Assembly: GCA_000165345.1 (NCBI GenBank)
Contig: CM000429.1
Coordinates: 64,001 to 128,000 of the forward strand
Length of the DNA stretch: 64,000 nt
Reading direction: 5' to 3'
The translations under genes were made by a program, and so were the position numbers. Numbering within the stretch: position 1 is the first letter of the stretch; every line of letters begins with the position of its first letter. The notes beneath the pieces are model-generated. The model made no database searches, had not been told where the DNA came from, and was given only the letters and a program-made list of their open reading frames with translations. Of this stretch, positions 42,501 to 43,305 are shown piece after piece.

Positions 42501-43305
42501 TTATTTTTTATTAATAACACGATCTTTTGTTTCAGTCAAAGTTGGATAATTATCAGTGAAACACTGAGTATAGCACTTAATCAAGTCATGGTCTTTATTT
42601 AAACTATTTAGAAGATCCTTAGGTTTCTGTTTGTATATAAATTATTTATAAAATAAGGAGAAGAAATTTTAACAAAAAAAAAATTGTCATTTTGTTGCAA
42701 GTAGATATAAAGTTAAGTAAATTTTGCCTTAATAATTATTAGCTTACCTTAAATAGATTTTCGAATTTATTGAAACACAGTTGGTGGCAATTCATCACAT
42801 TTTCGTTAATAATATTTAATTCTTGATTAACTTTATTTTGAAAGGTTTCAAGAGGATCTTGACATTTCTGCATTATAATGGAAAACCAAACAAAGAAAGA
42901 AAATCCAATATAAAAAAAGTATAATCATTTTTATTAAATTTTGCTATTATCATTAGTTTATTAACATACCTTTAGACAATCTTGAATATTTTCTAATGAT
43001 TTTTTTTTGTCTGAATTTTTTAAGTATTTTGAAATACAATTTGAAGAGCATTCAAAAGCTTTTTTCTGGTCATTTAGAGTAGAGAATGTGATCTAATTAA
43101 AAAAAAAGTTTTGCAATTTTATACGTAACAATCAGCATTCAATGGCATGAATTATAGATTAAGTATTAAATCAAGTATTATTAAAACTAGTTTTGGAAAG
43201 GGGAGGAATGAAACATACATCATCAACTTGATCTTCAAATTTTTTTCTGAAATCTCCAATATATTCCTCAATTTTATTTACTAAGTCAATTGTAAAATTT
43301 GACAT
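42501..43305 (-). CDS. FAM136A: FAM136A/DUF842-like small protein with four CX3C motifs, 4 exons: 43219..43305, 42970..43092, 42748..42867, 42501..42626.
   Basis: Assembled 151-aa product MSNFTIDLVNKIEEYIGDFRKKFEDQVDD|ITFSTLNDQKKAFECSSNCISKYLKNSDKKKSLENIQDCLK|KCQDPLETFQNKVNQELNIINENVMNCHQLCFNKFENLFK|KPKDLLNSLNKDHDLIKCYTQCFTDNYPTLTETKDRVINKK. Its CSSNC, CLKKC (spanning an exon junction), CHQLC and CYTQC motifs and their spacing mirror human FAM136A (CSASCC, CIERC, CTMHC, CVTKC). Donors are gtatgt, gtatgt and gtaagc; all introns are phase 0. Entirely missing from the ORF track. Confidence 0.6.

Follow-up and report, generated by a model that had tools for sequence, protein, structure and literature searches.

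Human FAM136A has been described as a soluble protein of the intermembrane space (IMS) that carries no presequence and is needed for IMS proteostasis, which is disturbed when the protein is lost; it is a substrate of MIA40, by which four disulfides are formed in its two twin-CX3C motifs, and it forms a non-covalent homodimer (PMC12557607). It was also reported to bind and solubilise unfolded VDACs directly, with a hydrophobic groove that acidic residues line, to promote the insertion of VDACs into the outer membrane, and to chaperone some helical inner-membrane proteins as well (bioRxiv 10.64898/2026.08.03.742567). The human studies of 2025-2026 state conservation of FAM136A "in metazoa and plants", and the later study connects it with VDAC paralogues and with electron transport chain (ETC) subunits. 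The Toxoplasma protein TGME49_319730 was aligned by its authors with FAM136A of Cyclospora and herring (PMC8509533), and has been reported to be mitochondrial (PMC12607534, PMC8509533). Here, we analysed a stretch of 64,000 nucleotides of Cryptosporidium parvum DNA (GenBank assembly GCA_000165345.1, contig CM000429.1, positions 64,001 to 128,000 of the forward strand; hereafter the window, meaning the whole stretch), which carries a FAM136A-like gene on its minus strand at 43305-42501. According to our favoured reading, to which we give a probability of roughly 0.8, this gene is a spliced FAM136A orthologue under constraint, whose product acts as a holdase in the IMS of the mitosome.

The gene spans 805 bp from the ATG at 43305 to the TAA that ends at 42501, and was rebuilt computationally as four exons (Table 1). 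Its coding sequence (CDS) of 456 nt gives a product of 151 aa with the CX3C motifs CSSNC (residue 44), CLKKC (residue 68), CHQLC (residue 97), and CYTQC (residue 128), of which CLKKC is formed across the junction of exons 2 and 3 as C-L-K|K-C. An exhaustive path search found exactly one GT..AG splice path that yields the 151-aa protein. The preliminary description of this locus, made from the sequence alone, had proposed a four-exon gene with phase-0 GT..AG introns of 126, 102, and 121 nt; all of these features were reproduced, and the proposed 151-aa product with four CX3C motifs, the second of them across a junction, is borne out by the rebuilt model. Cryptosporidium is an intron-poor genus, and three introns within a CDS of 456 nt are unusual.

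The gene of the window was aligned with the corresponding loci of C. ubiquitum and C. canis. The exons contain no indels and are 80-92% identical to those of C. ubiquitum and 69-74% identical to those of C. canis, whereas the introns are only 58-68% and 37-49% identical, respectively, and are interrupted by 5-26 gap columns, with indels that are not multiples of three (Table 1). Intron 1, for instance, is 126, 117, and 106 nt long in the three species. The GT and AG dinucleotides nevertheless lie at identical codon boundaries in all three. Against C. ubiquitum, dN/dS was 0.056 (Nei-Gojobori; dS = 1.24, dN = 0.069), while synonymous sites are saturated against C. canis. Indel-free exons, drifting introns, fixed splice sites, and the low dN/dS together point to a gene that is spliced, translated, and constrained; judged from this comparison of sequences, it is a genuine four-exon protein-coding gene under strong purifying selection across the genus.

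A hmmscan search of Pfam-A, of the kind that the preliminary description had suggested, placed the protein in DUF842 (PF05811) with E = 2.7e-17 and 63.1 bits, where the gathering cutoff is 25.1; the match extends over positions 5-128 of the 131 in the profile. The refuting outcome named in that description, a lack of any significant DUF842 match, thus did not occur, and no other Pfam family reached its own cutoff. When 1.84 billion representative proteins were searched exhaustively with phmmer, using as query the protein P0001, which is 99% identical to the spliced product, 27 proteins were found at E <= 0.001. The best matches beyond the genus (23-32% identity) came from a blastogregarine, Eimeria, an archigregarine, Chromera, Cardiosporidium, Digyalum, and Theileria. 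The matches also include dinoflagellates, as well as insect and flatworm proteins that NCBI or UniRef name FAM136A, such as the insect "protein FAM136A-like" P0010 (E = 3.9e-13) and the flatworm "Protein FAM136A" P0033 (E = 9.2e-4). This spread of taxa fits vertical inheritance within the Myzozoa. A profile search of a word-indexed protein database returned only six proteins and added nothing.

In an alignment of 21 family members, the cysteines are the most conserved columns, being invariant or at least 90% conserved, and all eight are invariant across seven Cryptosporidium species or genotypes. The gaps between successive motifs measure 19, 24, and 26 residues in every Cryptosporidium protein and 12-15, 24, and 26 residues in most family members. 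The motif spacing claimed earlier for FAM136A/DUF842 is thus exact for the second and third gaps, but not for the first, in which all Cryptosporidium proteins carry about six extra residues (the KYLKNSDKKKSLEN region; residues 49-67, exon 2) in the loop between motifs 1 and 2. Among the aligned members, this insertion in the first hairpin loop is specific to the genus. Taken together, profile match, cysteine pattern, and taxon spread identify the protein as the apicomplexan orthologue of FAM136A. As a separate observation, the Chromera velia member P0012 keeps only the second twin-CX3C unit (two motifs) and the Digyalum oweni member P0014 has three motifs, which indicates that the full set of eight cysteines is not obligatory throughout the family.

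An AlphaFold2 (AF2) model built on the 21-sequence alignment reached a mean predicted local distance difference test score (pLDDT) of 87.6 and a predicted template modelling score (pTM) of 0.74, with helices at residues 2-33, 35-53, 58-104, 116-134, and 137-150. The N-terminal 25 residues have a net charge of -2, and no presequence was seen in them. The protein is therefore modelled as a small all-helical bundle without an N-terminal targeting presequence, and the long helices of the model agree with the three-segment bundle of human FAM136A (PMC12557607). A search among solved structures found no relatives, with Tim9 appearing only at E of about 0.1.

It could be argued that the protein simply belongs to the small Tim family (Tim9/Tim10), from which it has diverged, and is not a distinct protein of the FAM136A type. 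A UniRef name, "Tim10-like domain-containing protein", the architecture of helical hairpins with CX3C motifs, and the resemblance of the C-terminal part of human FAM136A to TIM10 (PMC12557607) all lean in this direction, as do faint matches to Tim9 (E = 0.12 with the single sequence and E = 0.08-0.11 with the family profile). However, these matches are not significant, and zf-Tim10_DDP (PF02953), like any other small-Tim family, is absent from the Pfam matches at E up to 10, where DUF842 scores 63 bits. Moreover, two twin-CX3C motifs are packed into 151 aa, against one in about 90 aa for small Tims. We consider this explanation improbable.

A second alternative takes the cysteines as zinc ligands. 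The protein would then be a "C2C2 zinc finger" of the cytosol or nucleus that binds nucleic acids or has a regulatory function. Names such as "YOU2 family C2C2 zinc finger" and "C2C2 zinc finger domain-containing protein" are found in databases, an RNA-binding role was speculated upon for the Toxoplasma homologue (PMC12607534), and the reported lack of Erv1 and Mia40 in C. parvum (PMC3044749, PMC3097184) makes reduced, metal-binding cysteines conceivable. No zinc-finger family, however, was among the Pfam matches at E up to 10, and no zinc-finger motif was found in the Toxoplasma protein (PMC8509533), which is listed as mitochondrial (PMC12607534); in addition, the human family member resides in the IMS with its four disulfides mapped (PMC12557607). 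TGME49_319730 is mislabelled as "YOU2 C2C2 zinc finger", and a zinc-finger function of the Cryptosporidium protein is very unlikely. Finally, one might suppose a chance assembly of short open reading frames (ORFs), or a pseudogene in decay that yields no functional product, because no exon reaches 60 aa and the exons (23-27% G+C) are hardly richer in G+C than the introns (19-25%). This explanation is refuted by the comparative data and has a negligible probability, given the DUF842 match, the single splice path, the indel-free exons beside indel-rich introns in three species at a dN/dS of 0.056, and the eight cysteines conserved in seven Cryptosporidium species or genotypes.

The organelle in which a FAM136A orthologue would work differs from that of human cells. 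The organelle of C. parvum is a mitosome that lacks DNA, the TCA cycle, a conventional ETC, and ATP synthesis, and retains the biosynthesis of ubiquinone and of Fe-S clusters (PMC12691609). Neither ubiquinone synthesis nor AOX nor any electron transport remains in C. ubiquitum (PMC5146892). The preliminary description had combined the gene with COQ4 and EXO5 of the window as signs of a functional, ubiquinone-containing mitochondrion. COQ4 is indeed present, as two minus-strand ORFs at 23395-23862 (positions 3-125 of Pfam Coq4) and 22878-23309 (positions 139-167), and C. parvum does make ubiquinone, so that this part of the claim stands; the organelle, however, is a mitosome without DNA, and EXO5 cannot serve an organellar genome there and gives no evidence on mitochondria. 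C. ubiquitum keeps both EXO5 and the FAM136A-like gene, the latter intact and constrained. Since this species has lost ubiquinone, the gene is not a marker of ubiquinone metabolism or respiration. The split of COQ4 over two ORFs also marks it as spliced, and as a further gene of which a simple ORF list gives only fragments.

The function of the Cryptosporidium protein is most likely, by analogy with its human relative, that of a soluble IMS holdase for membrane-protein precursors. In this scheme, the protein would be made in the cytosol and enter the mitosome via Tom40; the stapling of its helices through the CX3C cysteines would then trap it in the IMS, where an ATP-independent holdase activity may keep hydrophobic precursors soluble until they are inserted. 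We infer these steps of import, trapping, and holding from homology with the human family member. Candidate clients are the beta-barrel proteins Tom40 and Sam50, both present in C. parvum (PMC4339806), and carriers of the inner membrane, for instance the ADP/ATP carrier; mitochondrial carriers of C. parvum have been discussed previously (PMC12691609). The protein may work beside the only small Tim that C. parvum has (Alcock 2012, as cited in PMC5584982). That C. ubiquitum keeps the gene without electron transport or ubiquinone argues for a role in biogenesis and not in respiration.

Several points weigh against this function. Human FAM136A has been linked to VDAC paralogues and ETC subunits, and C. 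parvum has no conventional ETC. The Toxoplasma homologue is dispensable in tachyzoites, where its knock-out is viable (PMC12607534). The identity to family members outside Cryptosporidium is only 23-32%, so substrate specificity may differ from that of other members. A further point concerns oxidation: Mia40 has been reported absent, being not recognisable in apicomplexans including C. parvum and Toxoplasma (PMC9490983, PMC3097184), and Erv1 was absent from C. parvum in a BLAST survey of 2011 (Table 8, PMC3044749). If the reported lack of Mia40 and Erv1 holds, the eight cysteines need an explanation, either by an unrecognised oxidation route or by zinc binding. That a FAM136A-type IMS chaperone operates in a mitosome without a conventional respiratory chain, and in C. 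ubiquitum without any electron transport or ubiquinone, in a genus without recognisable Mia40 or Erv1, is a reading that we regard as possible but rather doubtful.

Should it be true, the ancestral and indispensable task of FAM136A would be the biogenesis of outer-membrane beta-barrels and of carriers and not the assembly of the respiratory chain, the eight cysteines would have to be oxidised or loaded with metal by some other route, and Cryptosporidium would offer a minimal natural system for folding in the IMS independent of Mia40 and Erv1. What the comparison does provide is a gene whose conservation and constraint extend to a parasite with a mitosome, and within it to a species devoid of electron transport, and a second predicted IMS chaperone for an organelle thought to have one small Tim. 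The discovery of the gene carries no importance in itself; its modest value is contextual.

Both the gene and its assignment to the family had been made public before, hence it is not a new gene. The window shares 99.84% identity over 12.8 kb with chromosome 1 of C. parvum IOWA-ATCC, and GenBank lists the 151-aa C. parvum protein cpbgf_100493 / CPATCC_0038910 (QOY43581.1, WRK30439.1), 99% identical to the rebuilt product. The annotated gene has the same 805-bp span and coordinates, and differs by one nucleotide in exon 4 (V147 vs L147). At the protein level, C. ubiquitum shares 86% and C. canis 70% identity with it, and the cluster also has members from C. hominis, C. meleagridis, C. tyzzeri, and the chipmunk genotype; gene models of all these, together with C. 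parvum, are deposited with DUF842 precomputed. The earlier remark that the gene is missing from the ORF track therefore holds for the prokaryote-style ORF list, but not for GenBank, where it is annotated in at least seven Cryptosporidium species or genotypes. In the literature searched, no mention of the locus tags of the Cryptosporidium gene was found.

The ORF list misses the gene because no ORF in its region attains 60 aa. The maximum there is 44 aa, and one of the ORFs of this length (43171-43305, minus strand) is exon 1 read through into intron 1. The same artefact occurs in public Logan assemblies as the orphan "protein" P0015 (44 aa), and a 33-aa fragment related to the exon 1 read-through, P0022, is also present in public assemblies. 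Prokaryote-style ORF calling thus breaks up this gene, so that exon 1 appears as orphan "proteins" of 44 and 33 aa.

Intron positions were compared between the window gene (42501-43305, minus strand) and the family genes at L004 1501-2024, L005 1501-2254, and L006 1501-2311. In Theileria equi, Eimeria flavescens, and Cardiosporidium cionae, the gene has a single phase-0 intron. It falls in one shared alignment column within CX3C motif 3, at the equivalent of C. parvum residues 99|100. The Cryptosporidium introns, which lie after residues 29, 70, and 110 and are common to C. parvum, C. ubiquitum, and C. canis, do not coincide with this shared apicomplexan intron at any position. Two further family genes, one of them from an insect, are intronless and uninformative on its age. 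A small nucleolar RNA (snoRNA) or another intron-hosted RNA was considered as a reason for intron retention and rejected: when 42300-43800 was scanned against Rfam with E up to 1, no RNA family was detected in the introns, and the sole match was a chance CRISPR-repeat at E = 0.98. A scan of the locus for tRNAs found none.

Table 1. Exons, introns, and upstream conserved block of the FAM136A-like gene, with nucleotide identity and gap columns against C. ubiquitum / C. canis
Feature	Position in window	Strand	Length	Description	Identity (%)	Gap columns
Exon 1	43219..43305	-	87 nt	ATG; residues M1-D29; N-terminal helix (predicted); without basic presequence	92 / 69	
Intron 1	43093..43218	-	126 nt	GTATGT..TTAG; phase 0	58 / 49	9 / 20
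Exon 2	42970..43092	-	123 nt	Residues I30-K70; motif 1 C44-C48, loop insertion, C68-L-K of motif 2	84 / 74	
Intron 2	42868..42969	-	102 nt	GTATGT..GCAG; phase 0; splits CX3C motif 2 (C-L-K|K-C)	62 / 37	5 / 15
Exon 3	42748..42867	-	120 nt	Residues K71-K110; C72 closes motif 2; motif 3 C97-C101	83 / 72	
Intron 3	42627..42747	-	121 nt	GTAAGC..ACAG; phase 0	68 / 45	26 / 6
Exon 4	42501..42626	-	126 nt	With TAA; residues K111-K151; motif 4 C128-C132	80 / 69	
Conserved block	43328..43370	-	about 43 nt	TTTTCACCCGGCCAAGTAACTAAAAAAGTAATTTTGACAATAA; 23-65 nt upstream of ATG; candidate core promoter or 5' untranslated region (UTR) element		

The gene order Nop10, V-ATPase proteolipid, unknown gene, EXO5, and DUF842 is common to the window and the annotated C. 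parvum chromosome. On C. parvum chromosome 1, the FAM136A-like gene is divergent from EXO5, which lies at 43788-45128 of the window. Upstream of the ATG, the block at 43328-43370 is near-invariant between the window (C. parvum) and C. ubiquitum, and the surrounding intergenic region is divergent; we infer that it is a candidate core promoter or 5' UTR element. Within the spacer shared with EXO5 (43306-43787), two further stretches on the EXO5 side are conserved against C. ubiquitum, namely CCGGTATAGGAAT (about 43723-43735) and TACATGCAATT(T/G)CATGTGGA (about 43674-43693), and these blocks have the character of a CCACATG..CATGTGG inverted repeat. At about 43385-43420, a C-rich patch has kept its composition but not its sequence. 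On the other side of the gene, the minus-strand ORFs 41168-41665 and 41665-42057 abut in different frames and have no Pfam match. This pair (41168-42057) corresponds to the downstream neighbour, which in C. parvum is annotated as a single spliced product of 324 aa (L003 7249-8340) and is shorter in C. ubiquitum (291 aa) and C. canis (259 aa).

Among the closest known systems, the small Tims (Tim9/Tim10, with CpTimS as the single small Tim of Cryptosporidium) resemble the protein in their helical hairpins with twin-CX3C motifs. They are soluble IMS holdases for beta-barrel and carrier precursors and are imported without a presequence, and the FAM136A-like protein may behave likewise. It differs from them in its lack of a PF02953 match, in its similarity to Tim9 of only E about 0.1, and in its two twin motifs within one chain; human FAM136A, moreover, is a dimer and not a hexamer (PMC12557607).

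Toxoplasma TGME49_319730, likewise from an apicomplexan, equals the protein in size. It has its database label in common with the DUF842 proteins of Cryptosporidium sp. chipmunk genotype and Cardiosporidium, and its orthology rests on this shared label and on the published alignment. Unlike the Cryptosporidium protein, it resides in a fully respiring mitochondrion.

The closest counterpart is human FAM136A itself (UniProt Q96C01; DUF842 / InterPro IPR008560). The Cryptosporidium protein is only about 25-30% identical to metazoan members, its first hairpin loop is about six residues longer, and its host organelle is a mitosome with neither a conventional ETC nor a recognisable Mia40, so that the oxidation route and the clients must differ at least partly. 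Nevertheless, it belongs to the same Pfam family with a score above the gathering threshold, shares the eight cysteines in four CX3C motifs with the 24- and 26-residue gaps of metazoan members, and is predicted to be an all-helical bundle of similar size that, like the human protein, carries no presequence.
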